In this document: in pieces, positions 19,533 through 59,195 of the stretch
How positions within the stretch are numbered: position 1 is the stretch's first letter
How the letters are laid out: each line of letters starts with the position of its first letter
Assembly (NCBI GenBank): GCA_042408215.1
Contig: JAYFMW010000030.1
Coordinates: forward strand, 512,001-576,000
Direction of reading: 5' to 3'
Source: Microcoleus sp.
GTDB lineage: Bacteria > Cyanobacteriota > Cyanobacteriia > Cyanobacteriales > Microcoleaceae
DNA: 64,000 nt
Translations under genes and position numbers: made by a program
Notes under the pieces: model-generated
Database searches by the model: none
What the model saw: only the letters and a program-made list of their open reading frames with translations
What the model was told of the DNA's origin: nothing

Positions 19533-19590
19533 ATTAAAAAAATTGATTGAGATAGGCGCTGTGAAATATGGCTAGCCTATTTTTTTTGTT

Positions 19591-28156: not shown

Positions 28157-28191
28157 TATTTTTACCTATCCTGAATTTTTGAATCGCCAAT

Positions 28192-28707
28192 TTAAAAAAT
28201 GATTTCCCAAACTAAAGTCAGCTTGAAATCAGCCGTTTTAGTAATGTTGGGAAATACGACTCGATTGTACATAATTCCCCCTTGGGCGCTATTAAATAGT
28301 CCGGCTTCAGTCAAAGCTAGCGGTTGATTGGGGGGTTCGGCAAAGTCTAAGTCAACGCACAATCTCACCTTGCGATTTTTTTGTCTGACGGTTCCGCTTT
28401 CAACTTTAATCGGGATTTCATCGGCATCGCTTAAATCTCTGGCAAGATCCAGGGGTTTGACTTCTTTGCGAAATACTTCTTTTTGCAATGCGGTATCTTC
28501 AACTGGATTCACCGGATTACTCCCAGTACCGATCGCCAGATAACGGATCGGCTCGATTTTTTGATTTAAAAACATTTTCGCAACTAAATCTCGTCCGCTA
28601 TAGACGATGAAATTATTGGCTTTAACTTCATCGACAAGTTCACCTGCGGGATTAAATTGTTGGATAATCAATCGTCCTTTCATGTCCATTGCATCAGCCA
28701 TTTTCAT
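28192..28707 (-). CDS. Baseplate/fibre-attachment protein
   Basis: NFIVYSGRDL, LAIGTG, ALQKEVFRK, LTEAGLFN, LTLVWEIIF resemble tail-fibre N-terminal/adaptor proteins. Confidence 0.65.
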   Translation of the reverse strand: MKMADAMDMKGRLIIQQFNPAGELVDEVKANNFIVYSGRDLVAKMFLNQKIEPIRYLAIGTGSNPVNPVEDTALQKEVFRKEVKPLDLARDLSDADEIPIKVESGTVRQKNRKVRLCVDLDFAEPPNQPLALTEAGLFNSAQGGIMYNRVVFPNITKTADFKLTLVWEIIF

Positions 28708-28731
28708 AGTTTTAGTTTCCTCAATTGGTAG

Positions 28732-30768: not shown

Positions 30769-30773
30769 GACAA

Positions 30774-33284
30774 TTAACCTCCGGTAATTTCCACGATAAT
30801 TTGTAGGTTATCCCCGCTGAGATTGAGGGGTTCTAGTTGGGCGCGTTCGATAATCCGCATCGGGATATCCTGCTGGGTAAAAATGCTTTCCCGCGCCGTA
30901 AGTTCTAAAGTATCTAGGGTATAATCTGCCCCCCGCAGAAAAATTCGGGTAACATCAATGAGTTGTGCTTTGTTGTCACCGTCAGGAATCAAGGTTTGCA
31001 AGGTGGCTAGGGAAAGATTGTTAGCCCGATCGCGAATTAATGATAGCAAGTTAGTTCGCAATTGCTCGTAGTCGAGATTTTCGCCCAGATTCAAACTCGG
31101 CAACTGTTGGGTAAAACTGGGGGTAAACAGACTGGTTAAAGTCTCTTTCATGGCGGTTTTTAGCTGTTCTGGATTGATATTTTCCGGTGGTAATCCGGTG
31201 GTATTCAGTCTCAGTTTTAACTTGCTAATGGCGATCGGCACTACCTGGACATCACTATCGATCGCAAAATCAGTGGCCAACTGGGTTTTTTCAAATGGTT
31301 CCACCCGAATTTCTTTTTTCTGAACATCTAGGCGATCGCGAGCATTTTCTAAATCTAATACCTGAAAATCTCCTAATTTCCAATTGACATCAAGCACCGA
31401 TTCAACGTCAAGTGCCCGATTGACAAATTTTTCAATTTCGATATTTTCTTCCGGCTTTAGCTGTTCCAGATAATCGCTCAATTCTTGTCTGACTTTGGTT
31501 AATACTGTCTGTTTTTCCAAAGCAGTGATGGTAAGCGGCAATATCAGTTTAATCGCACCACTAATTCTCAGGAAATTAGAGAATATAAAAGTTTTTCCTA
31601 GCTTGCCTTTTTCAACAAAACTCACCTCTACTGTTTGGTCATCAAAACTCATTTTGGGATTCCATAAATGGGGATTCATCCACACTTCGACTTCGGCATT
31701 TAGTTGAGCTTTAATCGCACTGACACTAATACTTTCACCCACTAATAGACGCTGGAAATAGGTTTGCAGTGTTTCGAGGAAAGTATTGTGAGTTTCCTGG
31801 GTTAAACTTGTGGCTTTTACTTGCACATCTACAGTTAAAGATTTAATTTCCGAAGCAACGCGGATGGATTTAACAGTGAATTTTTCCAGAATATCTGCTT
31901 CCAATCGCTTCACAGTCTTCACAGTGGAAGCATAGGAATCGACTTCTGGTTTTTTCCCTACTTGGCGCGTCGTTTTCAGAGCAAAATCTAATAAATCGCT
32001 GACGTTTTGACAGTCTAAAATTTTGCGAGTAAGTTGGGATATCAACAGCGGTTGTCCCATTTTCTGAGTTTTGAGGTGGGCGGCGATCGCCTTTTCTACC
32101 TGTTCCTCAATTTGTATCCTTTCCGCAGCAGATATCCGCAAATTTGAATTTAATTCAATGCGGAAAACACCATCAATTTCAATGGCATTCGCTGGCTTTA
32201 AAATCGCATAAATTCCCGCAGCCCTTACCCGTTCAATCTCCTGTTTGATTTGGCTAACTTTATTGGTATCTTCAAAGTCTATCCCATCGACGAATACTTC
32301 AATAACACCAAACTCCCGCAACTCGATCGGTTCACTATTACTGAGATTAAAACTAAGATCCTTGCGTAATGGTTCCCACTGCGTAGTATAACTTTGGTTT
32401 AATTCTCCGGCTTTTCCCGGTATCGATGCTTGAACACTCACTTCTACCGTTTCACCGGTAAAATTGATGCTTTCCGTTGTGATAAATTGTTTTCTAGTAG
32501 TGGTTTCCAGAACAATAGTTAATTCTGTCCCTCTGGGAATGTGAAGGGGCAATTTTTCCGCTGATACTGGCGTACTAGACAGACTGACTTTTCCTTTCGC
32601 ATTATGAAAGTTTTCTCTAACCTTAACTTCCCTAACTCCCGGTAAACTCAACAGGGCATTTTCAATCGATGTTGTATTGGCATTACTAGCAGCAATCAAA
32701 GCTTTTTTAGCCCGTTCCCGCAGTTGTTCGTCTGTCTCCCGCAGCTTACCAGTAAAGACAATTGCTTCGGGATTATCAACTGTTTTTACCCCCGGTATCG
32801 GCTGGGGCATGATTTTTACAGTTCCGGCTTTTGTAACTTCTGTTTCTCCTGGCTGTATGGCTTGTACCCGCACTTTGATCGATGTTTCCGTGGGGGGAAT
32901 AATTTGCGCTTCAATGGTTTTGTAAGCTTTTTTCGGTGATTCTTCCTTATCTTCTGTGGTGACTAATGTTCCGATGGGAATCGTGATATTTTCATCCAGT
33001 CCCAAATCGCGATCGAAAGTAACTATTCCGGTAGCATAATCTGGTTCGCCGCGTTTAATCCCTAAAATCGCGACTACTTTATCTAGATCCACTTCGGCGG
33101 CGGTATCCACATAAGCAGATAGGTAAACCCGCTGCATTTCTTCGTACAAAATCGCCATTTCATAAGCGAAGGATTCGTACAGGGTGCGAACCACACTTCC
33201 GGTTTGAAAGTCGCTGACGGTGGAGACGGTGCGATCGCGCATCGCCTCAAATATTTGGGTAAAATTCTTCTGTTCAAAAACCAT
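30774..33284 (-). CDS. Baseplate J/gp47-like protein, extended (836 aa)
   Basis: DFQTGSVVRTLYESFA, AYVDTA...LDKVVAILGIKR, ETDEQLRERA, RAAGI. Confidence 0.88.
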   Translation of the reverse strand: MVFEQKNFTQIFEAMRDRTVSTVSDFQTGSVVRTLYESFAYEMAILYEEMQRVYLSAYVDTAAEVDLDKVVAILGIKRGEPDYATGIVTFDRDLGLDENITIPIGTLVTTEDKEESPKKAYKTIEAQIIPPTETSIKVRVQAIQPGETEVTKAGTVKIMPQPIPGVKTVDNPEAIVFTGKLRETDEQLRERAKKALIAASNANTTSIENALLSLPGVREVKVRENFHNAKGKVSLSSTPVSAEKLPLHIPRGTELTIVLETTTRKQFITTESINFTGETVEVSVQASIPGKAGELNQSYTTQWEPLRKDLSFNLSNSEPIELREFGVIEVFVDGIDFEDTNKVSQIKQEIERVRAAGIYAILKPANAIEIDGVFRIELNSNLRISAAERIQIEEQVEKAIAAHLKTQKMGQPLLISQLTRKILDCQNVSDLLDFALKTTRQVGKKPEVDSYASTVKTVKRLEADILEKFTVKSIRVASEIKSLTVDVQVKATSLTQETHNTFLETLQTYFQRLLVGESISVSAIKAQLNAEVEVWMNPHLWNPKMSFDDQTVEVSFVEKGKLGKTFIFSNFLRISGAIKLILPLTITALEKQTVLTKVRQELSDYLEQLKPEENIEIEKFVNRALDVESVLDVNWKLGDFQVLDLENARDRLDVQKKEIRVEPFEKTQLATDFAIDSDVQVVPIAISKLKLRLNTTGLPPENINPEQLKTAMKETLTSLFTPSFTQQLPSLNLGENLDYEQLRTNLLSLIRDRANNLSLATLQTLIPDGDNKAQLIDVTRIFLRGADYTLDTLELTARESIFTQQDIPMRIIERAQLEPLNLSGDNLQIIVEITGG

Positions 33285-33295
33285 AATCAAACTTC

Positions 33296-33760
33296 TTAAT
33301 TTCCAACTATCGATATATTCAGAGTCAGCGGTGTATCTAAATCTACCACTTTTACGATGATTTTAGCTTTTAAAGTGTTAGGGTCTTTCAAGCGAGATGG
33401 CGGTTCAAAAACAATATCAATTATCTCATCTATTCTGCTTTCTTGATGCAAACATTCCCGGATATAAATATTGGCTAAACCTTGGGTTTTTATGTTGTTT
33501 AGTTCGCCCACCAACAGATATAAGCGCGAACCATAATCGGGATGTCCTAAACTAGCTAGTTCTCCTTTGCGGGTATAAAGTCGATTTAAAATCGCTTGAC
33601 TTAAATTATCTATTTTTGTTACCGTTGCTAAGTCGCGATTCTCGGCTTCTAAATCTACGTTGTTCCAATCGGCAATTCTGAGCAATTGACGATTCTGCGA
33701 TTCTAAATCTCTGGAGTAGAGAGTTAGTTTTAAATCGAACTTTTGTAAATCATCATCCAT
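33296..33760 (-). CDS. GPW/gp25 baseplate wedge protein
   Basis: NLSQAILNRLYTRKGEL..LGHPDYGSRLYLLVGE. Confidence 0.88.
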   Translation of the reverse strand: MDDDLQKFDLKLTLYSRDLESQNRQLLRIADWNNVDLEAENRDLATVTKIDNLSQAILNRLYTRKGELASLGHPDYGSRLYLLVGELNNIKTQGLANIYIRECLHQESRIDEIIDIVFEPPSRLKDPNTLKAKIIVKVVDLDTPLTLNISIVGN

Positions 33761-33766
33761 AATTTA

Positions 33767-34291
33767 TCACGATTTTTTGATTTGTTCAATCGTTGCTTGA
33801 GAAAACGTTACATCGGCTTGACTCAAGTCAACTTTTCCGGTGATTTTGACATTCCCAGCGATCGCTAAATTACCAGAAATTTGAATGGGTTTCTCATTCT
33901 GACTAGATAACTGAATGTCACCATCGGCAATTTTGATAATAGTACCACCAAAGCTAACTGTAATCGATCGCTCTGTCACCTCGATCGCTCTTTTGCCATC
34001 ATGCTCAACAGCAAAATTACCTTGAGCCACAATCCGATTCTTAGTCACAAAAGAAATGCCATCTTTTTGGTCTAAGCAAATCTTAGCATGACCGGATTTT
34101 TCGGGTTCTGGACAAGTTTCATCAGTCCCCTGACAAAAACCCTTAGCATGGGGTTTTTCTACCCGACTCGGCATATCGTTGGGACAGATAAAAATCTCTA
34201 AATATAACGGATCGGCATTGGGCTTTTCCTGAATCGTTTGACTCCCTGTATCATAAATATAATCGCTATTAGCACCTTTAATTCTGACCAT
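33767..34291 (-). CDS. Spike-associated hypothetical protein (Cys/His-rich N-terminus, beta-repeat C-terminus)
   Basis: ICPNDMP..EKPH..FC.GTD..CP...GHA..C, then I.I.G repeats; start moved to ATG 34291 because the upstream part is repeat DNA. Confidence 0.6.
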   Translation of the reverse strand: MVRIKGANSDYIYDTGSQTIQEKPNADPLYLEIFICPNDMPSRVEKPHAKGFCQGTDETCPEPEKSGHAKICLDQKDGISFVTKNRIVAQGNFAVEHDGKRAIEVTERSITVSFGGTIIKIADGDIQLSSQNEKPIQISGNLAIAGNVKITGKVDLSQADVTFSQATIEQIKKS

Positions 34292-34444
34292 CTTCTTAAT
34301 ATTTGGGGTGGAAAGTTGACTGAACAAACGAGCATAGGATAAAGGCAAAAAAACCCGGTTTCTTAGAAAAATAGTGGCTCTCCACCAGAGATATCCAGGC
34401 AGAAACCGGGTTTTTGGCCCCGCCTGCGTCCAGGAATGGAGCAA

Positions 34445-35296
34445 TTAACCGACTTGAGTATTTCTAGCTTTGGCTTGAATAGAATTAATCTTTTCAGTTG
34501 GGACCATCACCGGACAAGGCGCACCTAAATTCCCCATGTGAGTGTGCATACTGAGAATAATATCATCACCATCGCCCACTGCATTAGCTAATAATCGGCC
34601 GCCAACTTGGATCGAACCCGTCGCAGCATCACCAATTTTAATGCTACCCATACTTTTGACACTGACATTGTTACTAGCAGCGTCAATAGTAATGCCCCCA
34701 GCTTCGATTTTAATTTTGCAAGTACCATTATCAATGGTAATGTTGCCACCACTCAAAACTACTTTACATTGTTCATTTTTGAGCGTAGCATCTCCCCCCT
34801 CTAAAGTTAAATGACATTTCTCATTCGTCAGATCAATTTTATCATCATTAACCGTAATTACGTGCTTTTCATTTTTGCTAGTGACGGTAATTGATCCCTC
34901 TTTATCAATTTTTAAACTGCCCCCTTTTTCTCGATCGTGTTGCAGCAAAAATTCCTTTTCTTTATTGACTGGAGGTTGGTCTTCATCATTATACAACCGC
35001 CCAATAATTATCGGAGCATTAATATCGCCTCCAATAAAAGTCACCAAGACTAAATCTCCCACATTGGGAATATTCGCCAGTCCAATATGGGGCGTAACAG
35101 TTGGCACTTTCCGCAATTCAAAATCTTTGCCATCGGGCTGCTTTTTATTCTTCAATCTTACGGAACATTGGTAGTTATCTTTATCGCTATCCGAAGCATG
35201 GGGAAATATTGCCGTCACGATGCCAAGTTCGGTAGTATAAATTTTTTGTGCTTCTTGCTGGGCAACTTTTTGCATTACCCCAATAATTGAATCCAT
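34445..35296 (-). CDS. Baseplate spike protein (gpV/gp5-like OB-fold plus beta-helix)
   Basis: ELGIVT, IPNVGDLVLVTFIGGDINAPIIIGRLY, beta repeats, apical HTH (SMHTH); TAATG overlap with the hub gene. Confidence 0.88.
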   Translation of the reverse strand: MDSIIGVMQKVAQQEAQKIYTTELGIVTAIFPHASDSDKDNYQCSVRLKNKKQPDGKDFELRKVPTVTPHIGLANIPNVGDLVLVTFIGGDINAPIIIGRLYNDEDQPPVNKEKEFLLQHDREKGGSLKIDKEGSITVTSKNEKHVITVNDDKIDLTNEKCHLTLEGGDATLKNEQCKVVLSGGNITIDNGTCKIKIEAGGITIDAASNNVSVKSMGSIKIGDAATGSIQVGGRLLANAVGDGDDIILSMHTHMGNLGAPCPVMVPTEKINSIQAKARNTQVG

Positions 35297-36265
35297 TATT
35301 TTTCCTCCCAATCAATCGTGGTTAAAAAACCCTGATGGCGGTTCAGGATATGCTTAATTCCAGTCACTTTAAAACTGCCATTTTGCTTGCTAATGGGCAT
35401 TTTTGTGATTTGGATACCATCGCCTAATTTGACATTGGCTGCACCCATCGCCACGATCTGTCCCCGTTGCTTTTGTTTCAGATGACTTAGCACCCCCCGT
35501 GCAATACTTTGAGCAACAGCTTGGCTGCGTGCGGTGGGATCGGCCAGTCGCAGAACGTTTCCACCCGCATCCCGCCGTGGCTTTCACTTCGTTTTTAGTC
35601 AACCAAGAATAAGCCTGTTCTCCTTGTCCTTGACTGGCTGGACTTTCTCCATAAATTTCTACTTTTTCGATGCCTTTTTGCGGTTGTTTTGAGCAGTATT
35701 TGAGCAAATCTTGACCGTAAGTAAAAGTATGAGTTACAGCAGGAGTGTACTGGGAAAAAATTGCCCGATCGCGATCGTTAGCATAAACATCAAAACCGCA
35801 TTGTCGAGCTAAGTTATACAAGCAATCGGCCGCATTTTGGCGATCGCCCACCGTATAAACCGAAAATTTAATCCCATTCTCAACTTTACCAATAGTCAAC
35901 TTCGCTTGTCTGAGAATATCTTTAACAATATCCCCCCCATGAGATTTTTCATAAACCCGATTCAATCGCAGCAAAGTTAAATCAGTAAAAGCACTAGCCG
36001 CCTCAATCTGAACGCGATCGATTTCCCAATCTACACAAGTCACTCTACCTGTAAATACTAAGGTAGTTTGTTTCTCGTAACCGATTTCTATAGATACCGG
36101 ATCTTTGGGAGAAACCTCCACATTTTTCGGGATACCTAACACAATCCGACAAGTGTTGACGGGAATATGCAAAGAAGCTTGCGATCGCAAATCGAGTAAC
36201 AGCGTTCCATCATTCGCCGTGTAGGTAGTTCTGCCGAGTTGGATTTTGTAACTAATCTTTAACAT
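35296..36265 (-). CDS. Baseplate hub (gpD/gp27/gp44-like), split by a +1 frameshift at ~35568
   Basis: VFTGRV, LARQCGFDVY; removing one base joins KATAG to GGNVLRLADPTARSQ...VKLGDGIQI...NGSFKVTGIKH...GFLTTI (ORF 35296..35493). Confidence 0.8.
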
Positions 36266-36362
36266 CAAAATCACCCCTATACTGGTAAAGCATTTACAGC
36301 AGATTGCAGGTTTATGAAGTACATCCCAGAGCGAGCGATCCCCGTAGGGAAACGGCAATGCT

Positions 36363-36569
36363 CATTGGTGTAAACTTAACGTCAAACCCTGTCAGAAACG
36401 GCTGTTTGACTATTAAGCCTAGATCCCCCCTAGCCCCCCTTAAGAAGGGGGGGACAAGAGTCCGATCAAAGTCACCCCCTACTCCCCTTCTTAAGGGGGA
36501 TTTAGGGGGATCTAGACTCAGGTAAAAGCGATATTTATCAAGGGTTTCAGGCTTAAGTTGACACTAATG
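36363..36569. mobile_element. MITE (same family as 26716-26955) nested in a REP-like palindrome
   Basis: CATTGGTGTAAACTTAA...TTAAGTTGACACTAATG; the region is flanked by a ~40-bp direct duplication. Confidence 0.75.
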
Positions 36570-36610
36570 GGCGAAAGCCTTTGTCCCTACTTTAACATCA
36601 AAATCACCCC

Positions 36611-39600
36611 CTATACTGGTAAAGCATTTAACAGGCGATCGAAAGCTTCCTCCACATCTTCTAACCCAATATTTAGTTCACTTTTTAGCTGTTCCAGCCT
36701 CGCCCTTAAGTCTTTAAACAACTTATTAATTGCCTCCCGTAGGGCTTCAGTTTTCTTGACAACTTTCTGATACTGACCGTCGAGACTACTGGCGACAGCA
36801 CCCAGAAGATCGTGGAACAATTGAATAATTTTAGCGTGCAATTTATCCAATTCATCGACAATTTTTTGCGGATAAATTTCTGCTAATTGCTGCTGGATAT
36901 AGGGAAAAATTGACTCAATATTCATCACCAATTCCCCGGCATAATTCGATTCTATCAACACCCGGTTGAAGTGAACAATATTATTTCGATAGTCACCTTG
37001 AGATAACTTTTGCGCTTCAGGAGACAGTTGTATTCCCTGTAATTGGTCTGGTTTATAGAGGTTTTCATCCAACAGTAAGCGATTCAAATCCCGAATTACT
37101 GCTAGTTTTGTGCCGGGGGAGTTGACAGCAAGCAAAGACTGAGTATTCGCAGTCAATTGAGATTTGATATAAACAGTCAGACTGTCTTGAGATTCCCGCA
37201 GTTTTTCCAGAAACTTATCAAAATTGATAAAATCGCTGTCTTCAAAACTATTAATAATTCGGTGCGGGCTGAGGAATTTTACAGTCTCCCAAACATTGTT
37301 ATAGGTTCCTTGCAATGCCGTCACTACTTCGCTAACTAGACTATTAATTACAGCTTTCACTGCATTAATAGCATCGCGTATTTGAGCGCCTAAATTCGTG
37401 GCAATATTGCTCAAAATATCCGCTAATCTTCCTGGTGCTTCTGATAATTTTTGAATCACCAGTTTGATATCACCAAGCACGGAACGAGGTTGTGCTAGTA
37501 AATTATCTAGGGAATTGAGCAGGTTTTGGATCGGATTAATCAGTTGTCGATCCAATTCCTCTGGTAAGAATTGTTTGAAACTGGTAAGCATCTGCTCGGT
37601 ATTAAAGTTTTGAATCACTTCAATACTGTTGGGTAGATTTGGTTTGAGTCGATCGCCATCTGTTGTCAGCAATTGCTCCACTCGTTCATAAACCGACTGC
37701 GGATTGGTGGTGTTGATGCCATCATAAAGTCTTTGTAGGCGATCGCGCAAATCTTGATAATCCACCGCCAATTCTGCTTGGGGACTAAATTGAGCCAAAG
37801 TCAATTGCTTTGCTTCCCACAACACCTGCACTTCAACCATCACCGGAGCATATTCGCTGACAGCCGCTTGCAAACTGCTCAAATCAAAACCAACATTCGG
37901 GTTTTTCTGAATTTTCACATAATCTGTAATTGCCTGTTTCAATCCTCCTACAGATACCGTTAACTGCTCTGTACCGATCGCATTAACTCGCTCAACCACG
38001 CGATCGCGCAGAGATTCAATTTGCTGAATTTTGTCAGCAAAACTGTAGCTCAAAATATTTTCTAACGTCAGCCAAAAATCCGATTGCACCACATCTGCCA
38101 AACCCACACTCGCCATCAACTTATCAACTTGATTCAATCCCTCATTCACTTTTGCTACTAAAGCTTCTACCGGAATCTCATCCAAATTTTTAGTCACAAT
38201 TGCCAACTGCTCCTTCAGAAAATCAGTCATCCTATCTGGAGACAAAGATTCAATAATTTGCACCAGTTTTTGATAAAGCTCATCTAACTTATCAACTAAC
38301 TGCTGAGGATCGATCGCATCCAGCTTCCCAAGCATTTCATCATAAAAATCCTTAACTGGTTTCAGCAAAATCGAAGGTTTGTACTCATCAATTTTCGCTA
38401 CCACCGTATCTAGAGAAGGTTTGACAACTTTTTCAATTAAACTTCCCGGTTGAAAAGATTGAATTTTTGCATCAATTTTATCAACTTCTCCCTGAATCAA
38501 TCCTACCAAGTCTTCTATCGGCTCCAGAATTTCTGCAAAAGCCAAGTTCAATTCTGGATTGACAATCCCCGGTACATCCACCTCTTTAATAATTGTCGTC
38601 CCCACTTTCAGAGCCACTTTAGTTGGGGTAATAAGCTTAGCGGCATCAATCCCGCGCAACTTAGTTTCTAGATCGCCCGTTTTATCAACTACCGCCTTAA
38701 ATGCAGGTTTAAGTGATACTTTTCCTAAGTTATCAGTAATCAATTTAATCCCACTTTCTGCCTCTTTGAGACTGTGTTCTACCAGGGGATTATCTAAGAC
38801 TTGCGTAACTCGATCGAGTAATTGATTGATTTTATCCTCTAAAGCTTGCCTGTTAAGATTAGTTTCAATTTTGGTGTTTAATCCCCCGATACTGCTTCTT
38901 ACTTCCTCCGTTGTTTTGTGAATTTCCACCGAAATTTTATTAATATTATTGACCACAAATGTTGAGGCTTCGTTGCAACTCCGCTTTAGAGGTTTAACCA
39001 ACTCCATTGATTCCGCGCAAATTTTGTCAATGAAATCTTTAATTTCCCGGATTGCATCAGACAGAAAACTTTTGATTTGACTTAAAACGTCCTTACCTTT
39101 GTCGATCGCCTGAGCAATGGCTGTAGTCGCTTGTCTGGCCAATTCCTCCGCCTTGCTAATAGCAGTATCAATCAGTTGAGGGATTTTTTGGGTAAACTGT
39201 CGCAGTTTAGCCGTAATCTCTGCAACTTTTCGATCGATCGTGTCGATATAAACTTGAAGCTGATTAAATAGCGGCACTAAGGAAAGCGTATTTTCATCGC
39301 TGGCGGCTACTTGCGAAAGTTGAACTAAAGCAGTATTGAAACTCTCGATAGTAAAATTATTTAAATTAGCGATCGCCCTTTTAATTCTCGCTTCATTTTC
39401 CTCAATATTTCGAGAAAGTTTCCTAGTTTTTTGACGCAACTCTGCCATCGATAATTTGTCGAGTTTGTTGGGATTTTCTAACTGGTTCAGAATAGCTTGA
39501 TATTCACCAAAATATTCGCGACGCTGATGAATATTCGTTTCAATACTCTGAATCGCCTGGGAAGGAAGTTGTTGGCTTAAGGATAAAACTTGAGCTGTAA

Positions 39601-40174
39601 AAAGGCTGGTTAAACTAGCCGAACCCAGTTGGCTGAGTAATTCATCAGGATTAGATAGTTGATCGAGTAATTTCTGAAACACCTTTAACAAAGCATTAAA
39701 TGTCCGCACTGGCAACATTTGGGCCTTACTCAGGAATTCGTTAAACTCACTAAATATCGAGTTAGCAACAGGTGGCAAATCGCCAAGGCTGATACTGAAG
39801 CTCAAATCTTGAGTCAAACTGACAATTGTTGATTTAACTTCACCCACCAAATCTATATTTTTAAAACTATCAGCACTAGGAATTGGAATAGCTGCGGATA
39901 AACTTGCCAAATTCAGCGTAGTGAGTTGATGGAATTTAGTAGTTACTTCTGCTTTCAGTTCATTGGCTGACAAAGGAACTGATGAAATTGTCTTTTCTAT
40001 ATTGCTTAAATCTAATTTTGGCAGATTTATGCCCTTTTTGAATTCATCAAAATCTGGCAGTTGCGGTGTTACTTGGCCCAGAATAGTTTCCGGGTGACTA
40101 AGTTGATTTGTGAAATCAGCAAAGGTCGCTTCAGGGTTAATGTAATTTAAATCTTCTAAGAGAGAAAGTGCCAT
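36611..40174 (-). CDS. Long amphipathic alpha-helical protein (tape-measure candidate or cargo), 1187 aa
   Basis: Predicted helical L/I/V-rich periodicity, recurring ..P..L motifs, no catalytic motif recognised; lies within the tail operon. Confidence 0.55.
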   Translation of the reverse strand: MALSLLEDLNYINPEATFADFTNQLSHPETILGQVTPQLPDFDEFKKGINLPKLDLSNIEKTISSVPLSANELKAEVTTKFHQLTTLNLASLSAAIPIPSADSFKNIDLVGEVKSTIVSLTQDLSFSISLGDLPPVANSIFSEFNEFLSKAQMLPVRTFNALLKVFQKLLDQLSNPDELLSQLGSASLTSLFTAQVLSLSQQLPSQAIQSIETNIHQRREYFGEYQAILNQLENPNKLDKLSMAELRQKTRKLSRNIEENEARIKRAIANLNNFTIESFNTALVQLSQVAASDENTLSLVPLFNQLQVYIDTIDRKVAEITAKLRQFTQKIPQLIDTAISKAEELARQATTAIAQAIDKGKDVLSQIKSFLSDAIREIKDFIDKICAESMELVKPLKRSCNEASTFVVNNINKISVEIHKTTEEVRSSIGGLNTKIETNLNRQALEDKINQLLDRVTQVLDNPLVEHSLKEAESGIKLITDNLGKVSLKPAFKAVVDKTGDLETKLRGIDAAKLITPTKVALKVGTTIIKEVDVPGIVNPELNLAFAEILEPIEDLVGLIQGEVDKIDAKIQSFQPGSLIEKVVKPSLDTVVAKIDEYKPSILLKPVKDFYDEMLGKLDAIDPQQLVDKLDELYQKLVQIIESLSPDRMTDFLKEQLAIVTKNLDEIPVEALVAKVNEGLNQVDKLMASVGLADVVQSDFWLTLENILSYSFADKIQQIESLRDRVVERVNAIGTEQLTVSVGGLKQAITDYVKIQKNPNVGFDLSSLQAAVSEYAPVMVEVQVLWEAKQLTLAQFSPQAELAVDYQDLRDRLQRLYDGINTTNPQSVYERVEQLLTTDGDRLKPNLPNSIEVIQNFNTEQMLTSFKQFLPEELDRQLINPIQNLLNSLDNLLAQPRSVLGDIKLVIQKLSEAPGRLADILSNIATNLGAQIRDAINAVKAVINSLVSEVVTALQGTYNNVWETVKFLSPHRIINSFEDSDFINFDKFLEKLRESQDSLTVYIKSQLTANTQSLLAVNSPGTKLAVIRDLNRLLLDENLYKPDQLQGIQLSPEAQKLSQGDYRNNIVHFNRVLIESNYAGELVMNIESIFPYIQQQLAEIYPQKIVDELDKLHAKIIQLFHDLLGAVASSLDGQYQKVVKKTEALREAINKLFKDLRARLEQLKSELNIGLEDVEEAFDRLLNALPV

Positions 40175-40298
40175 AAATTTAATTCCCAAGGTAAAGATAA
40201 AATGTTTTTTTTTGAGCAGATTTCCAGATTTTCGGGGAACAATTGAAATCTAACAGGTGGCTGGTATTTACTCCTAGGTCTACTTGAATATTTCAGCA

Positions 40299-40883
40299 CT
40301 AAATTTTAAAAAGTGCTTTCAATCCAGCAGTCGCTTGGTCAAAGTTTTTAGTGGCTTCTTTCACAGGTTCTAAACCTGTTTTCAAAGGTGCGATCGGGTT
40401 AGTAATTTCTGGCAAATTCCCCATTTGCAAAGCATCAGTCAGACTCACAACATCCATCAGTTTAGCAGCATCAAGCTTAATTTTTTGATCTAGATTAGAA
40501 ACTCCTGGGGATGCAATGGGTTTGGGAGGTTCAACATACTCTTGAACAATCAGTCGATAGCTAAATTCATCGGGCGATCGCGCAAGTTGCCACACTTCCA
40601 TTTTTTCTAATACAACTTGGCTAAAATAGGCTTGACCGACTATTTCCGCCACAAAGTCAACGGCTTTTCGCTGTTTGTGGATTTTTCGCAGAAAATCTAA
40701 ATCATCCCCTGCTTTTTGTCCGTAAAAAATTCCGCTAATTTCCAATTGTACCGAATCCCTTCCCAAATCTTGCACCAGATTTCCCAATTTACCAGGAATC
40801 CGATGAGTCACCCAATCCGCTTGTTCTAGGGTGACAATTTTATGCACTTTATTGAGTTCAACTTTTCCTAATTTGATGGCCAT
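40299..40883 (-). CDS. Tube initiator (Mu gpN DNA-circularization N-terminal / gpU-like)
   Basis: HRIPG..GNLVQDLGR...LEISGIFYG...FSYRLIVQEY. Confidence 0.72.
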   Translation of the reverse strand: MAIKLGKVELNKVHKIVTLEQADWVTHRIPGKLGNLVQDLGRDSVQLEISGIFYGQKAGDDLDFLRKIHKQRKAVDFVAEIVGQAYFSQVVLEKMEVWQLARSPDEFSYRLIVQEYVEPPKPIASPGVSNLDQKIKLDAAKLMDVVSLTDALQMGNLPEITNPIAPLKTGLEPVKEATKNFDQATAGLKALFKI

Positions 40884-40885
40884 AA

Positions 40886-42052
40886 TTACTCCCCATAAAA
40901 TCGGCGATATTCTCGATTTATTTCTTGGGCGATCGCCTCTAAAATTGTCTCCATCTCTAGTTCGGGATGGCGATCGCTATGCAAAGATGCTTCTACCATA
41001 GCGTACCTATTTCTACTATCATCAGCTATTTTCGTCCTATTTTCCACCTCACTCTCCTGTGGTTCCAGCCATCCACCCTTGGCTGCTACAAATTCTTCGG
41101 AAATATCCGAAACATAACTCATTTTTTCCGATGTTTCCATCTGATAATCGGCTAATTCACTTTCGGAAAACAGGAGATTTTCTGAAGAATCATGTTTGAG
41201 GAAATCCGCCTCAATTATATGTTCTTGATTGGGCTGCGATACCAAAAAAGCCGACAAATCTTTTAAGCCTTTCATTCCCAGTGAATTTTGGGCAAAATCC
41301 CTCTGAATGTGCTCTGTTTGTTCTGTCGCCTTATCCAATTTTGGTAGATTGACATTCTGGGCAAATTGTGTTTTTATTTCCCTTGGTTCATCCACTACAG
41401 ACAAAACTTCTGAAGTTGGGTCTGAATCAGATTTATAGAAGGCTAATTCCTGAGATAAAACTCGATCGCCTCCCTCAGCATCAGATTCATCAAAACCTAA
41501 ATCCCTAGGATTAATCCTTGTATCTACCAGGGGAATTTCTGCCACAGAATCTGAATAATTCCCCAGCGCAGGATGATTTTTTTGCCCTTCTCCCGGCGCC
41601 ACAACTCTCTGGGATATCGCTTGAGGTTTTGACGAAGTATCCCCCAGAGATAAAGATGGCGATCGCCTTTTTGCATAACTAGATTGGCTATTAGCAGTAG
41701 GGATTGGTCGATCGGGATTAACCAAAGACTCGTATCTTCTCCAAGTTTCTAAGTAAGGATGAATTTTTGGGCGATCGTCCGATGTAGTTTCCTCCCCTAG
41801 ATTGATATTATTTAAACTTCCCAAATCAGGCGGAATAAACCCTGTAGTCAGCAATTTTTCCCAAACTTTAGATTCATTGATGACTACCTCGAATCGCTCA
41901 GTTTCCTGATACAAAAGCGCGATTTCCGCCCAATCTTCGCTACTCAAAAGATTGTCAGTCAACCATCCACTCGTATAGTTACACAATAAAGCTTGAAATT
42001 CATTGCTCAGATTGATGCCAAGATCTTTTAAACTTTCATCACCCATCTTCAC
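40886..42052 (-). CDS. Acidic low-complexity tail-operon protein with conserved-looking C-terminal helix
   Basis: GTG start after GAGGAG RBS (alternative ATG 42046); ends ETILEAIAQEINREYRRFYGE; directly downstream of the chaperone genes. Confidence 0.6.
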   Translation of the reverse strand: MKMGDESLKDLGINLSNEFQALLCNYTSGWLTDNLLSSEDWAEIALLYQETERFEVVINESKVWEKLLTTGFIPPDLGSLNNINLGEETTSDDRPKIHPYLETWRRYESLVNPDRPIPTANSQSSYAKRRSPSLSLGDTSSKPQAISQRVVAPGEGQKNHPALGNYSDSVAEIPLVDTRINPRDLGFDESDAEGGDRVLSQELAFYKSDSDPTSEVLSVVDEPREIKTQFAQNVNLPKLDKATEQTEHIQRDFAQNSLGMKGLKDLSAFLVSQPNQEHIIEADFLKHDSSENLLFSESELADYQMETSEKMSYVSDISEEFVAAKGGWLEPQESEVENRTKIADDSRNRYAMVEASLHSDRHPELEMETILEAIAQEINREYRRFYGE

Positions 42053-42088
42053 TTTGTCGCTCCTCTGTACTTCACTAAAACAGGACTT

Positions 42089-42660
42089 ATACCAATTTAA
42101 TGGGTCGTTGCACATATCTCGATCCCCCTAAATCCCCCCCTCCCCTAGGGCGTGACTTTCAGACTACGCCTTAAGATCTTAGATCCCCCTACATCCCCCT
42201 TAAAAAGGGGGACTTCCAGACTCTTTCCCCCCCCTTATTAAGGGGGGCTGGGGCCGATCTTAATGGGTCGTTGCACATATCTCGATCGCCCTAGCTCCCC
42301 CCCAAGGGGGGAAGGGGGACTTTGAGAAGAATCTTGTCCCACACCCCCTACTCCCCTACTCCCCTTATTAAGGGGGGTTATACCAATTTAATGGGTCGTT
42401 GCACATATCTCGATCCCCCTAAATCCCCCTTAACAAGGGGGACTTTGAGAAGAATCTTGTCCCCCCCTTATTAAGGGGGGTTAGGGGGGATCGAAATTCT
42501 ATGCAGCCTCATAAAAAACAGGTATTAGGGGGGATCGAAATTCTATGCAGCCTCATAAAAAACAGGACTTACGCACGCGGAGCCAAAAACCCGGTTTCTA
42601 CATCAATATCTCTCGGCTCAAGCCACGATTTTCAAAGAAACCGGGTTTTTTTGGCCTTAG
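42089..42660. repeat. Composite stack of MITE/REP-like repeats inside the tail operon
   Basis: Three copies of AATGGGTCGTTGCACATATCTCGATC plus an AAACCCGGTTT/AAACCGGGTTT palindrome. Confidence 0.8.
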
Positions 42661-42698
42661 TCCTATAAAAAAAGCCATCCCCACATCGCCACATCCCC

Positions 42699-43180
42699 TC
42701 ATTTTTCCGAGCGATTTTCCTCATCTAACAGTTGTAGATACATTGACACCTGCGCCATTGTCATCGATCCCACTTGTTGAGGAGTCCAACCAAAAGCACG
42801 CGCTAATCGAAAGCTAGCTAACACCAGTGGCGAATTACTTAACTCGAAATCATTTTTTTTTCCGTCAATCCGCTAATTTGCCGAATCTCACCGATCAGAA
42901 AGTTAACTAATCCTAGATTCATGCTTTTAACTTGTTCCAAGGAGAGACTAGGTTGTACTAGGGATTCTTTAATCATCAACAAAGGAATCAGGGCGGGATC
43001 GCTTTTCGCTGCTTTCATAATCAGCCCAAAAGCCCCAATCGTCAGCGGGCGCAATTGCACCACTAATTCCCGCTCTTTATTAGTGCTACTTGTGCTATGT
43101 TCCAATACCTCTGGGGGAATCGCGACATCAAAAATAATTTCTGAACCACCTAGCAGTTCTTCCGGCGTTAAAAATTGCAT
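42699..43180 (-). CDS. Tail assembly chaperone gpGT-like fusion via predicted -1 programmed frameshift (160 aa)
   Basis: A9 slippery run at 42853-42861; -1 frame gives NDFELSNSPLVLASFRLARAFGWTPQQVGSMTMAQVSMYLQLLDEENRSEK*. Confidence 0.8.
42839..43180 (-). CDS. Tail assembly chaperone gpG-like (113 aa)
   Basis: Follows the tube gene; VQLRPLT..., ends ISGLTEKK typical of frameshifting chaperones. Confidence 0.8.
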   Translation of the reverse strand: MQFLTPEELLGGSEIIFDVAIPPEVLEHSTSSTNKERELVVQLRPLTIGAFGLIMKAAKSDPALIPLLMIKESLVQPSLSLEQVKSMNLGLVNFLIGEIRQISGLTEKKMISS

Positions 43181-43384
43181 TTGAGGGTGAGGATTTAGGA
43201 AAAGTTTAAGTCAGGAATTACGCAGAAAAAGTCAAGGGTTCCGGTTTTTTTTACCGAGGTGATAGTTGTCACTAGATTAGTCCTGGACGCATGGGGACTC
43301 AGAAACCGGGTTTTTTACGAAAATATGCGATCGAGCCAGCACCCAAGGTAAAAAACCTGGTTTCTGTTGTTGATAGGTAAACTA

Positions 43385-43891
43385 TCAACCTGTCTCCTCA
43401 GAACTAATGCGTAAAGCTTTAAACGTCACTCCTTCCATCACAAAATCATCTTCAGGTAAAGTAAAACTCCAGCTTTCAAACTTGACCCCAAAGACTGTCA
43501 GTGTACTGCTGTTATCTGGTAAAGCTGGATTTTTCAGCGAGATGACAATATTAAAAGAAGGCTGAGGAATTGCGCCGGTAGGAGGAGGACTCGTCGCCCC
43601 ATCACCTAGGAGTAAGTGTAACAGGGCTCCATTGATGTGCGCGCGATCGATAAAACCCGAAACGCTAATATTACCCGGACGTAATTCTGTAGCAAAGCGT
43701 TTTCCTAATTCGTGATAGGGTCGTAATTCGTTTTCTACCTTAACCTGGACATTTTGTAAACGTCCCACTACGCTAGATAATTCGTACTTCCCGATCAAAG
43801 CTTCTGCTAATTTCCCCTCAACAGATTCTTGATTATCGACAGCTAAAACCAGCGAAGCATCCGAGCCGCGAAAAACATTGACATTAGGCAT
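43385..43891 (-). CDS. Tail tube protein
   Basis: Directly after the sheath; PYHELGKR...PGNISVSGFIDR, VKFESWSF..PEDDFVMEGVTFKA. Confidence 0.8.
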   Translation of the reverse strand: MPNVNVFRGSDASLVLAVDNQESVEGKLAEALIGKYELSSVVGRLQNVQVKVENELRPYHELGKRFATELRPGNISVSGFIDRAHINGALLHLLLGDGATSPPPTGAIPQPSFNIVISLKNPALPDNSSTLTVFGVKFESWSFTLPEDDFVMEGVTFKALRISSEETG

Positions 43892-43958: not shown

Positions 43959-45026
43959 TTATCCTAGATACATTGTCACTTGAATAAAATCAATACTGAA
44001 CGTCGGTTGCAGAATCATTTTCACGGCAACTTCCCCAGCAATTTCTTGTCGGCGGGTAGCCGAAACTTCCAGTTGATAACTTACCAGAGATTCGCTGTCT
44101 ACCATACTGGTAAGAAACGCATCCAAGGTGGCTTTCATTGCTCCTCGCACGCGATCGTTATTCAGCTTGCCAATATAAGGATCGCAAGAGGAGCGCACTC
44201 CATAAATTGCATAGTCAACAATGCGGCGCGTGGTGATTTGATTCCAAGGACTATCGGCTGTGGTGATGCCTTTGACGATTCGATATCCACTGCGGGCTTC
44301 TACCGTCAAGACTTTTTTTTGCACCAGTTCTTTTAGCTGAGCATTGTTAAACTCAGTGGTGATCCCTTCAATACTCAGAGTTTTATTAGTGGGGCTAGCT
44401 TGCACGTTCAAAGAAGCAATTAAGCCAGCTATAGCAGCGGCTAAATAACCCCCAGGAAGTTTGTGTTGCTTGCCTTTAGCCGTTAACAAAATTCCGGGTG
44501 CTGTAAATATCAGCCGACCTCGATCGTCGCTGAGATTGTGGCCGCTAATTTGCTCTAAATCGTCTTTACCGTTTTTAAACCCACTACCAATAATTCCAAT
44601 TCTTTCGCGTTTAATTTCGGCCGTAGTGTTCAAATGTCCTTTGAGGGCATCTACCATCCCAGCTTGGTTAGCATCTTGCCCCGCTAGGACAACTATATTG
44701 ACAATTTTGTTTTCTAATAGTGCTAAACTTTCTTGATAAGCATCAGTGGTTGCTCCCGAAGTTCGCACTGCATAAACCGTCTGTCCGCCATTTTTATAAA
44801 TCAATTCCAAGGCGCGAACTAAAGTTAGTTCGTCTTGCTCTCCGCCTTGCCATTCATTGCTCTCACCAAAAATTTCTTTAGCTTCCGAAAGACTACTGAG
44901 TAATGTTACTTCATTCTCAGTACCCTGACTGGCAGTACCAACAATACCAATATTCCCTGTAGCAACTCCACTGGGCGCAATTAAGCCTTCGGGGCGCACT
45001 TCAACGTAAGTGCCAGGTAAAATCAT
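43959..45026 (-). CDS. Contractile tail sheath protein (original start probably ATG 45477, now cut off by an insertion)
   Basis: ILPGTYVEV, IGIVGTA, SPTNK, KGITT...ITTRRIVD...YIGKLN...QPTFSIDFI. Confidence 0.9.
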   Translation of the reverse strand: MILPGTYVEVRPEGLIAPSGVATGNIGIVGTASQGTENEVTLLSSLSEAKEIFGESNEWQGGEQDELTLVRALELIYKNGGQTVYAVRTSGATTDAYQESLALLENKIVNIVVLAGQDANQAGMVDALKGHLNTTAEIKRERIGIIGSGFKNGKDDLEQISGHNLSDDRGRLIFTAPGILLTAKGKQHKLPGGYLAAAIAGLIASLNVQASPTNKTLSIEGITTEFNNAQLKELVQKKVLTVEARSGYRIVKGITTADSPWNQITTRRIVDYAIYGVRSSCDPYIGKLNNDRVRGAMKATLDAFLTSMVDSESLVSYQLEVSATRRQEIAGEVAVKMILQPTFSIDFIQVTMYLG

Positions 45027-45465
45027 AAAAACCTCACGGGAGCTTGGAAACCCAGTGGCTTGAGCCTAGGGAGGAAAAGCGATACGGGATGCTTTAGCGT
45101 CCCATGAATATTTTCAAAATCCATAGCTATCAAAAAATGGGTTGAAACCCGTCTTTCTAAGACGGTTTTATATTTCCCCTTTCGGGGTAGAGGGGTATGG
45201 TTGCCCCTCTAGGAAGATATGGTTGTCTCCATTTTTCCCTTTCGGGTAAAGTTCGCTTCGCCAATGTTTTAAGAGCTTTTTAAACCTGCAACACTGTTTC
45301 AGTGACCTTAAAACTGTTTAATTGCAGATGACAGAGCGGAAAACTAGCGTCGCATTCAAGGAGTGTCTTGACTCAAAAAACGTAGTCAGCTAAGACTTAG
45401 GCTGGTCAGAATGGCTTGTTTGATTACTCTTGCAAGCCCCGTCCCTTAAGGGCGGGGTTCCTGAC
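45027..45465 (-). mobile_element. Non-autonomous IscB-type IS200/IS605 element (omegaRNA/HEARO, no ORF), copy 1
   Basis: Plus-strand junctions TCAT|AAAAACC...CCTGAC|TGT; subterminal hairpins; homologous to 58809-59195. Confidence 0.82.
45235..45465 (-). ncRNA. HEARO/IscB omegaRNA scaffold, copy 1
   Basis: GTCAGGAACCCC...GGGGCTTG...TGACCAGCCTAAG...CTACGTT...GACAC...GCTAGT...GCTCTGTC...TTAAACAG...AAGGTCACTG..ACAGTG...ATTGGCGAAG. Confidence 0.78.
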
Positions 45466-45861
45466 TGTTTGAGCCATAAAATATCTTTTGTATTTCTCAG
45501 AACTATTTATCTCACATGAATGTTATTTTGAATAAAAAATGTAATAAAACTTATTATTGTTCAAGTTGGGTGATGGTTTCAAACTGAATCTAAGAACTAA
45601 GCTACCGAAGATGATGTGATCTCAAATCCGGTAGCATCGGAATTAATATTACTCACAGCCAGGACACGGCAGTGCCGTGTCCCTACAATTAATCACGGTA
45701 GTCCAAGGACACTGCCGTGTCCTCTCTCTATATCATTCCGGTGCAACCGGAATTGATGTGAGTCATTGAGATTTTTTAGTAAAACTTAAAAAAGTCAAAA
45801 GTAAGAAAGCTTTCAGTAAAAACAAGGTTTTTTAGTCTCAACTTTTAACTTTTGACTGGTT

Positions 45862-46076
45862 ATATCAATTCCGGTTGCACTCTTGGAGATGATTGTTGAC
45901 GGTTGACGGTTGACGGTTGACGGTTGACAGTAGACAGTTAACAGTTAACAGTTAACAGTTAACAGTAGACAGTTAACAGTTAACAGTTAACAGTTAACAG
46001 TTAACAGTTAACAGTTAACAGTTAACAGTTAACAGTTAACTCAAATTTACTATTCCGATGCTAACGGATTTGATAT
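45862..46076. repeat. Dispersed repeat (ATATCAATTCCG...CGGATTTGATAT) with (GTTGACG)/(CAGTTAA)n arrays
   Basis: Inverted ends and heptamer arrays visible. Confidence 0.8.
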
Positions 46077-47140: not shown

Positions 47141-47481
47141 GGCTGGCGCTGCTATACAAAACTTGGCTAAACTTATCAAATCGCTTCACCATGCAACTAG
47201 AAGTAATTTCTAGAGAGGCTGCTTTCTGGTTTCACCAAGGGAGTCGATCCGCAACTGTTGTCCACAGGCGTAAATTTGGGCGGAGCATCACCCTATTTTA
47301 CATGGTCATATATTTTTTTTAAAGCTTTTAACCATTGTTCTAACCATTTTCAACCAAATTAACAAATCGTGGTATCCCGATCGACCTTTGTATAGGCTGG
47401 TTAGTTTTGAATCGATCGCAGATTACTTACCGATCGAATCTGTAGCCTTGCCCATCTAAAAAACAACACCGCCTTGTAGCA

Positions 47482-49064: not shown

Positions 49065-49099
49065 TTCTAGCACAAAGCGACCCAGTAATGGTGTATTAT

Positions 49100-58808: not shown

Positions 58809-59195
58809 AAAAAAAGCTCGGTAAGTGGGAAACTCAGAGTCTTCAGACCTGAGAGGGAAACTTTCGCGTGGGGTTTTAACCGCCGTCAGTATTGGATCTG
58901 ACCTTTCCCTTTCAGGATTGGAGGGGTATGGTTCCCCCTCCGGTGAGGTATGGTTGCTTCGCTCTCCCTTTCGGGGTTATGTTAGCTTCGCCAAAGTTAA
59001 CTAGGCTTGTGAGGCTAAATGCACTGTTCCAGTGACCTTAGAACTGTTTAACAAGTAGCGACAGAGCATGGAACTAGCTTCGCATCCCAGGGTGTCTTGA
59101 CCTAATTAACGTAGCCATTTAAGACTTAGGCTGGTCAATACAGCTTGCTTGATTGCTCTTACAAGCTCAGTCCCGGAGCGGGCTGGGTTACTGAC
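58809..59195 (-). mobile_element. Non-autonomous IscB-type IS200/IS605 element (omegaRNA/HEARO, no ORF), copy 2
   Basis: Plus-strand junctions TTCAT|AAAAAAAGC...ACTGAC|GGC; homologous to 45027-45465. Confidence 0.82.
58967..59195 (-). ncRNA. HEARO/IscB omegaRNA scaffold, copy 2
   Basis: Same conserved blocks as copy 1, with compensatory stem changes. Confidence 0.78.

Follow-up and report, generated by a model that had tools for sequence, protein, structure and literature searches.

A protein-less IscB-type omegaRNA element within a Microcoleus tail-sheath gene, and the start-codon positions of its family

Among described mobile elements, those closest to the one reported here are the ISGst/PATE elements of Geobacillus stearothermophilus described by Meers et al. 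(bioRxiv 10.1101/2023.03.14.532601). The element in question is a 439-nt insertion near the beginning of the tail-sheath gene of a contractile tail-like cluster; element and gene both lie on the minus strand of a 64,000-nt stretch of a Microcoleus sp. contig (hereafter the window, C30:512001-576000 of the 7.36-Mb genome G000). ISGst/PATE elements resemble it in carrying an omegaRNA, the guide RNA of the IscB nuclease, at one end and in inserting without a scar beside a 4-nt target-adjacent motif (TAM), and most of their copies have no tnpA. Their insertions are biased towards transcribed sites and the sense orientation. IscB guides are encoded outside the transposon, in the flank 5′ of the RNA scaffold, and omegaRNA production hence depends on transcription that enters from the host flank. 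TnpA excises the element without a scar, after which the nuclease cuts the donor joint and recombination restores the element; protein-less derivatives which carry an omegaRNA would depend on a nuclease supplied in trans (Meers et al., bioRxiv 10.1101/2023.03.14.532601). The Microcoleus family differs from ISGst/PATE in its TAM, which appears to be ATGA, in lying on start codons far more often than expected and, at the sheath locus, in sitting on an internal Met codon.

Another point of comparison is the HEARO motif (Rfam RF02033), which occurs in many copies in one oscillatorian cyanobacterium, some of them with an open reading frame (ORF) for an HNH endonuclease (IscB). The sheath copy matches this model over its full length, whereas it lacks the ORF. 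Weinberg and colleagues reportedly noted in 2009 that HEARO elements integrate next to ATGA or GTGA; if so, the target motif is prior knowledge, while the quantitative start-codon pattern and the in-gene case are not. Stand-alone omegaRNA loci acting in trans are said to have been described by Altae-Tran and colleagues in 2021, and the present genome likewise holds omegaRNA copies without an adjacent iscB, with IscB encoded elsewhere. A related OMEGA effector, the nickase DtIsrB, uses an NTGA TAM 3′ of the protospacer and cleaves ATGA substrates (Hirano et al. 2022, PMC9581776). It differs in having no HNH domain and in coming from another organism, and the TAM of the Microcoleus IscB is deduced from insertion sites only. 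IStrons, in which IS605- or IS607-type elements with TnpB are combined with a group I intron, also limit the cost of landing while keeping a guide RNA; they self-splice from the mRNA (Zedaveinyte et al., bioRxiv 10.1101/2023.11.20.567912), whereas the Microcoleus element stays in place and its TAM would supply or keep the start codon.

The literature already describes omegaRNA elements without an ORF, their scarless insertion at a TAM, TAMs of the NTGA type and their dependence on transcription by the host. The docking of such elements on start codons, or an insertion within a gene rescued by the ATG of the TAM, is not described in the full-text literature searched, which did not include the 2009 HEARO paper or the 2021 OMEGA paper. 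We consider it probable that the sheath element is a selfish, non-autonomous transposon of the IscB branch of the IS200/IS605 family, tolerated in this gene by way of the ATG in its target motif. With its occupied and empty alleles it shows clearly, in a natural setting, an OMEGA-type transposon inside a coding sequence whose frame is left open.

The element at codon 5 of the sheath gene

A preliminary description of the window, made from the letters alone, had proposed a HEARO element without an ORF at codon 5 of the sheath gene and had named a covariance-model match as the check. The positions it gave all hold in the sequence, and Rfam cmscan places HEARO at 45246-45465 with 153.2 bits against a gathering score of 83 (E 2.6e-32); a genome-wide HEARO search of G000 returned the identical location. 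The interval 45027-45465 contains no ORF of at least 40 aa, and the IscB ORF (RRXRR plus HNH, 402-459 aa) that stands ~20 nt behind HEARO in other copies is missing here, which makes the sheath copy an ORF-less derivative. Read on the minus strand, ...tattttATGGCTCAAACA (45477-45466) is followed by the element, which begins with GTCAGGAACCCC... at 45465 and runs down to 45027, where its 3′ terminus reads ...cccgtGAGGttttt; the sheath ORF then opens with ATGATTTTACCTGGC from 45026. The terminus comprises GAGG (45035-45032) and TTTTT (45031-45027), and the ATG (45026-45024) comes directly after it.

The exact borders are set by empty alleles. The sheath gene is present in two of the 60 other genomes searched (36 of the same genus), G009 and G022, whose sheath proteins are 98% and 88% identical, respectively, to that of the window. 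Both of these same-genus relatives read ...ATGGCTCAAACAATGATTTTACC... / ...tattttATGGCTCAAACAATGATTTTACC..., which equals the two flanks of the window joined (...ATGGCTCAAACA|ATGATT...) and is translated MAQTMILPG. The joined CAAACA-ATGATT sequence that had been foreseen for relatives without the element is thus found in both, and the insertion was scarless, without target-site duplication. Contigs of public sequencing runs were also compared over 44800-45700. In the DNA metagenome run X2, one contig joins 45026 to 45466 and omits exactly 439 nt (aligned at 90% likeness; the shorter side of the joint is only 30 letters), while another contig of the same run enters the occupied 5′ junction (45438-45512, 0 differences).

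With 70 copies of the repeat family in the genome and short-read contigs that end at the borders of the element, it is conceivable in principle that assembly collapsed a repeat into the 5′ end of the sheath gene; the DNA contigs extend no further than 26-30 letters into the element, short of the 31 letters required for bridging. Such an artefact is nonetheless extremely improbable. Four independent runs (X11, X4, X2 and X14) have contigs which, with 0-3 differences, cross into the element from one of its two flanks, that of the sheath or that of the promoter, and one contig of the RNA library X14 spans 88 nt of coding sequence and 227 nt of the sheath copy's own sequence. These matches are copy-specific, since no other copy exceeds 80.5% identity to that of the sheath. 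Parts of the stretch left uncovered in X11 and X14 were not counted as absence, and depth over the HEARO part, several-hundred-fold because related copies and other organisms add to it, was not used as a measure of expression.

The sheath family as a whole indicates which of the two ATG codons is the older start. Among the 120 homologues listed, the closest (359-364 aa) start MAQTMILPGTY, and more distant ones start MPEIVLPGTY, MAEVILPGTY, MTQTMVLPGTY and the like, the usual N-terminus being M-x3-4-[IV]LPGTY, mostly without Met at the position of Met5. Because distant homologues keep three to four residues before [IV]LPGTY and lack this Met, the upstream ATG is concluded to be the ancestral start of the family, and the element lies inside the coding sequence after codon 4, as the preliminary description had claimed. 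For a few listed homologues the gene caller predicts a longer N-terminus or a start at the internal Met. The opposite reading, in which ATGATT was the original start and the in-frame ATGGCT a chance feature of the 5′ untranslated region (UTR), would have matched the usual docking habit of the family described below; it was rejected on the N-termini of the distant homologues. The present frame drops only the variable MAQT and retains the conserved ILPGTY... core. The old start now opens an upstream ORF (uORF) of 17 codons, translated MAQTVRNPALKGRGLQE (45477-45424), which ends in a stop codon as had been noted and runs into the first stem of the omegaRNA.

The sheath copy is a composite of a unit with a type-C-like end (to about 45131) and a terminal module of about 104 nt of type A, these being two of the three related 3′ ends found in the family. 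Type-C copies elsewhere in G000 terminate, by alignment, at the position matching ~45131 and are followed there by ATGA. A solo type-A module at G000:C12:73846-73943 is 90% identical to the terminal module, has ATGA next to it and then an ORF, and the last ~33 nt of the terminal module are similar to the sequence that follows the stop codon of iscB in copies which carry this gene. There are four composite copies in the genome, with 73-80% identity to the sheath copy. The bases after their type-C-like end are ATGA, ATGG or ATAG, the sheath copy being ATAG-like past a small indel, and in one sister copy the type-A module starts with ATGA. It follows from the composite structure that the omegaRNA scaffold makes up only about half of the 439 nt. 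The earlier claim that the first ~440 nt of the mRNA are a structured omegaRNA therefore stands for 45246-45465 (some 220-240 nt) and falls for the other ~219 nt, which consist of a transposon-end segment and the terminal module. Hairpins read by eye lie 8 nt from the omegaRNA end of the element (45457-45437) and, in imperfect form, 24 nt from its TAM end (45071-45051); a clearer subterminal hairpin, CTCAGGTCT-AAAG-ACTCTGAG, is found in type-B copies.

Table 1. Positions of the features discussed (window coordinates unless a contig is named)
Feature	Position	Strand	Basis or remarks
ORF-less element of IscB type (ISC / IS200-IS605 family)	45027..45465	-	439 nt, without target-site duplication
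HEARO / IscB omegaRNA scaffold (Rfam RF02033)	45246..45465	-	full model, positions 1-211 of 211
Segment 3′ of the scaffold, bearing small hairpins and a type-C-like transposon terminus ...GGGTTTCAACCCATTTTTTG	45131..45245	-	alignment with type-C copies
Type-A terminal module, ~104 nt	45027..45130	-	imperfect subterminal hairpin 45071-45051, 24-nt tail, GAGG, TTTTT
Predicted guide segment TTTTATGGCTCAAACA, 16 nt directly 5′ of scaffold	45466..45481	-	position in the sequence, if the host promoter transcribes inward
ATGA, putative TAM and former Met5 codon (+A), now first codon of sheath frame	45023..45026	-	host sequence in the empty alleles
Ancestral start and codons 2-4 (45477-45466), head of 17-codon uORF	45424..45477	-	translation, homologue N-termini
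Promoter-like site TTGAAA-18-AATAAT	45553..45582	-	10/12 matches, consensus scan only
Tail-sheath ORF as it now stands, 355 aa, without MAQT	43959..45026	-	Pfam, PHROGs, 98% identity to G009
Remainder of contractile tail-like cluster	27233..43891	-	Pfam, NCBIfam, PHROGs
Second ORF-less HEARO element, 387 nt, type-B end	58809..59195	-	Rfam, 144.3 bits at 58976-59195
Seven docked elements with an upstream in-frame ATG, GTG or TTG	G000:C29:75868, C9:14943, C30:230698, C12:36706, C17:185218, C8:83951, C17:48116		

ATGA sites and start codons across the family

The family to which the sheath element belongs is large. HEARO matches in G000 number 70, of which 64 exceed the Rfam cut-off. In about 20 copies an ORF of 400-445 aa starts ~20 nt past the end of the model, and the two of these ORFs that were examined contain RRXRR and HNH domains and match solved IscB structures (E 1e-27 to 1e-39). 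Genome-wide there are 31 RRXRR matches, 18 of which lie in uninterrupted open frames of 400 aa or more, along with 20 matches to the Y1 transposase (TnpA; PF01797). Full-length copies are composed of an omegaRNA of ~237 nt, iscB (a 423-aa ORF, as on contigs C8 and C3 of G000) and a tail of 81-87 nt ending ...GAGTTTCCCACTTACCGAGCTTTTTT. The ORF-less copies with an omegaRNA (41, with lengths of 335-580 nt) have one of the three related 3′ ends A, B and C. They are internal-deletion derivatives, since the type-B end is common to iscB-bearing and ORF-less copies, and thus PATE-like elements which retained the guide-RNA gene. In an alignment of 17 ORF-less copies, 30 of the 62 predicted pairs keep pairing with both sides changed, a count in which the relatedness of the copies is uncontrolled; this points to persistence of the omegaRNA fold, beyond its sequence, among ORF-less copies.

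Two further observations concern how these units are arranged. Sequences of the A, B and C ends occur at 153 distinct loci in G000, about twice the number of HEARO copies, and many end modules therefore stand alone without an omegaRNA, as at C12:73846-73943. At G000:C6:210182-211487, tandem HEARO units lie ahead of a single 399-aa DUF4335 gene: a 225-aa ORF separates the upstream unit from the second one, which bears the shared type-B end.

ATGA stands directly after all 46 copies in G000 whose 3′ end was mapped by similarity (projected ends were adjusted by at most 2 nt for the length of the T run), whereas chance would give it at ~2% per copy. Another eight iscB copies, of a different subfamily, likewise end before ATGA. 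No consensus is seen in the 20 nt on the omegaRNA side of the copies. The rule extends to other species: a scan with a 16-mer of the type-B end, one genome per species, returned 80 loci, and all 40 cyanobacterial loci with a same-strand HEARO upstream show ATGA 7-10 nt past the 16-mer, while the non-cyanobacterial loci are chance matches. Judged from these insertion sites, the TAM, read 3′ of the presumed protospacer, would be ATGA, which agrees with the TAM predicted in the preliminary description. The NTGA/TTGA TAM of the related nickase DtIsrB, as reported by Hirano et al. (2022, PMC9581776), belongs to the same type.

A large share of the insertions lie exactly at the beginning of genes. 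After one tandem pair sharing a downstream ORF had been reduced to a single element, 45 elements were compared with 40,000 sites sampled from the 50,012 ATGA sites of the genome. The abutted ATG opens at least 100 codons in 29 of the 45, against 15.3% of the sampled sites (binomial 1e-13), and in 21 of the 45 it is also the first in-frame start when the flanks are read together, against 3.3% (binomial 1e-19). A cruder null, from which sites inside long ORFs were removed, gives an expectation of 8.8% and an observed 19/45 at a length of at least 120 codons (P = 2e-9). All ten docked ORFs that were scanned have Pfam domains, several of them beginning at residues 1-12. About half of the 45 copies thus sit exactly on start codons, those of core-metabolism genes included: the docked genes include a ChlB-like oxidoreductase subunit, PntA/alanine dehydrogenase, signal peptidase S26, a SpeA-like decarboxylase, a radical-SAM enzyme and Usp.

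The sequences on either side of docked copies bear on how translation may begin there. The 5′ flanks of several docked copies end in GGAG-like strings, as expected if the element wedges between a native Shine-Dalgarno sequence and its ATG. Most docked copies themselves end ...GAGCTTTTTT or ...TTTTTCTG, without a clear Shine-Dalgarno sequence, and GAGG is found only in the four type-A copies and is absent from types B and C. In other genomes, an ORF of 100 codons or more begins directly next to 26 of the 37 evaluable HEARO-linked ends, these loci not being independent events. At seven loci in other species the element end is followed by downstream sequence at least 89% identical to that of G000 sites, which suggests that these are orthologous occupied sites.

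A second ORF-less HEARO element in the window repeats the pattern. It lies immediately before the ATG of a DUF1232 gene (58494-58808, minus strand; Pfam) and is missing in all five relatives searched, in which the flanks are contiguous and the break in the query (249|637) falls at the exact borders of the element. Its 5′ flank ends ...AGTAGAGGACAACGCC, and a GAGGA that resembles a native ribosome-binding site (RBS) now lies 387 nt from the start codon. At seven docked elements (table), the downstream frame continued across the insertion has an in-frame ATG, GTG or TTG 3-38 codons upstream; the downstream genes might be truncated at the N-terminus in the way the sheath is, or the codons might stand in 5′ UTRs by chance.

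One simple way to account for the excess at start codons is that the guide is expressed and the gene spared together only at sense-strand sites lying between a promoter and an ORF, and by a rough estimate, which does not come from mapped UTRs, the start codon makes up about half of the ATGA sites of that kind. We can imagine, with a confidence somewhat short of even, that in oscillatorian cyanobacteria one line of IscB-type omegaRNA transposons has become specialised for docking on start codons, and that its copies now form the 5′ leaders of dozens of host genes. If so, copies would sit between the 5′ UTR and the ATG or, as in the sheath, on an early internal Met; transcription of guide and scaffold from a host promoter would be guaranteed and the ORF spared. 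The host gene would occupy the place of iscB in the full-length element, and the element end would have to double as a translation-initiation region. The guide RNA of a Cas9 ancestor would thereby shape the leaders of a fraction of the proteome and occasionally its N-termini. The frequency with which copies in G000 lie on start codons extends the published idea that IscB elements need transcribed DNA to make their guides, and offers a testable reason for favouring ATGA.

Proposed expression, guide use and mobility at the sheath locus

In the course of events proposed for the sheath locus, a PATE-like element of the IscB branch, without a protein gene and with its omegaRNA kept, would have inserted without duplication just 5′ of an ATGA made up of codon 5 (Met) and one further base, so that the first four sheath codons were severed. 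The insertion would have been tolerated because the target motif itself contains an ATG, from which, at the former Met5, the sheath frame remains open. The 3′ end of the element (GAGG-TTTTT) would now be the translation-initiation leader, and the sheath would be translated from the former Met5 with GAGG five bases upstream. The preliminary description had seen a new RBS here. The arrangement before the ATG fits this, whereas the restriction of GAGG to four type-A copies means that it is no general feature of docked copies, and at the sheath its role is putative.

Transcription from the sheath promoter would have to traverse the element, yielding an RNA with 16 nt of host flank, TTTTATGGCTCAAACA, ahead of the scaffold, the order that IscB requires for a guide; guide flank, scaffold, remaining element sequence and sheath mRNA would then form one transcript. 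This transcript may originate at a promoter-like site upstream of the ancestral start, whose surroundings are conserved in both G009 and G022. No terminator-like site is found on the minus strand inside the element, and the RNA-library contig of X14 mentioned above (316 nt) covers 44939-45253, across the junction of element and sheath. In the empty allele the 16-mer is followed by ATGA, and after excision by TnpA an intact IscB encoded elsewhere could cut this allele, upon which recombination would restore the element. In the occupied allele the 16-mer is followed by GTCA, and the locus is therefore not a target of its own guide. The native guide/target pairs (16 nt plus ATGA), together with the resident IscB and TnpA genes, provide material for studying the trans-loading of protein-less omegaRNAs.

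Several observations weigh against this reading of the sheath element and of its family. The RNA support is a single metatranscriptome contig which gives neither strand nor 5′ end and could stem from contaminating DNA. The minimum-energy fold of the 3′ half pairs GAGG with codons 2-4, which could hinder initiation; the fold of the leader (last 259 nt and first codons) has a z of -3.05, but around the start codon its centroid structure differs from the minimum-energy one, so that it is uninformative on initiation. The omegaRNA nearest to an intact iscB is only ~77% identical to that of the sheath copy, and compatibility with the resident IscB is for this reason an assumption. None of the 20 Y1 TnpA matches is linked to the ends of the family. 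The closest other copies are only 80.5%, 79% and 73% identical over the full length of the element, and no donor is visible; with no copy above 80.5%, the element may have moved by cut and paste, or its allele may have been brought in by recombination. The compensatory changes in the omegaRNA could have been inherited from diverged master copies instead of arising by selection on ORF-less copies, and the start-codon excess could reflect retention and not targeting. As a separate matter, the one TnpA locus near a type-B end, 2.2 kb from it, was considered as the cognate transposase and rejected, there being no HEARO at E <= 0.01 and no iscB-sized ORF with it.

A less benign interpretation is that the insertion was damaging: the sheath would be uncoupled from its native initiation and the tail cluster silenced or strongly down-regulated and decaying, with the open frame a mere sign of recency. 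The native start now opens a uORF which ends ~400 nt before the new ATG, the leader of the sheath has been lengthened by 439 nt of structured RNA, and the cluster is accessory, as the presence of the sheath in two of 60 other genomes indicates. The same upstream region has gained at least one further repeat insertion relative to G022, and the insertion in the sheath is recent at the strain level or polymorphic. Set against these points, all cluster ORFs examined are intact and the X14 contig crosses the junction. The same arrangement also precedes genes that are unlikely to be dispensable (ChlB-like, signal-peptidase I-like and PntA-like), and the seven probable orthologous sites in other species suggest long-term tolerance. 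On balance we regard damage as unlikely. The biology of the tail cluster is affected only if the insertion changes expression.

The reverse proposal, that the element serves its host as a reversible switch or a regulatory leader, had also been raised in the preliminary description. Scarless excision by TnpA would restore the MAQT allele and give phase variation, or binding and processing by IscB would tune expression. Excision of this kind is reported for IS200/IS605 elements by Meers et al. (bioRxiv 10.1101/2023.03.14.532601), TnpA and IscB are encoded in the genome, and run X2 contains contigs of both the occupied and the empty junction, at depths of 6.7 and 6.9 (flank contigs 11.7). The co-occurrence of both alleles in one metagenome is what survives of this claim. 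The two alleles may stem from different co-occurring strains, given the 30-letter side and the 90% likeness of the joint, and contig depth is a poor measure; the occupied locus would moreover be spared by its own guide, for GTCA follows the 16-nt match. Nothing ties the sheath copy to the tail cluster specifically, as it is one of 45 copies that stand before unrelated genes. A regulatory or switching function is accordingly quite improbable in our judgement. A functional link between element and tail cluster finds no support, and the sheath element is read as selfish and not as a regulator.

The tail cluster and neighbouring features

The sheath ORF contains the Pfam domains Phage_sheath_1, Phage_sheath_1C and Gp18_domIII_N and matches tail sheaths in PHROGs; the nearest solved sheath structures are phage sheaths, with weak matches (E 6e-6). 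The rest of the cluster encodes tube-like, tape-measure-like (1192 aa), baseplate hub, spike (gpV-like), gp25-like and J-like wedge and tail-fibre-like proteins, for which NCBIfam gave no useful names. No capsid genes were found among the cluster ORFs scanned, and none of the 15 proteins scanned matches an ATPase. The earlier designation of this locus as a contractile injection system (CIS) is apt in the broad sense of a contractile tail cluster without a capsid; among the ORFs scanned it shows no hallmarks that would place it with extracellular CIS (eCIS) of the Afp/PVC type, whose accessory genes include an AAA+ ATPase and a gp19-type tube, and "contractile tail-like cluster" is the safe name.

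Just upstream of the promoter-like site of the sheath gene, a palindrome-rich repeat of ~125 nt with arms of the GGACACGGCAGTGCCGTGTCC type lies at ~45619-45743, and possibly 45862-46076; it is extra relative to G022 and has the look of an insertion similar to a miniature inverted-repeat transposable element (MITE) beside the same gene. The segment 45606-45765 has 151 BLAST matches in the genome and very high contig depth in the sequencing runs. Further upstream, between the tail cluster and holA (48084-49073), an ORF of 355 aa (46112-47179, minus strand) matches no Pfam family, and its counterparts in G009 and G022 are rich in proline and alanine (...SPAPKAA... repeats). Elsewhere in the window, a 6S RNA (SsrS) is found at 19346-19533 on the plus strand, with an Rfam score of 95.7 bits against a cut-off of 46.4.

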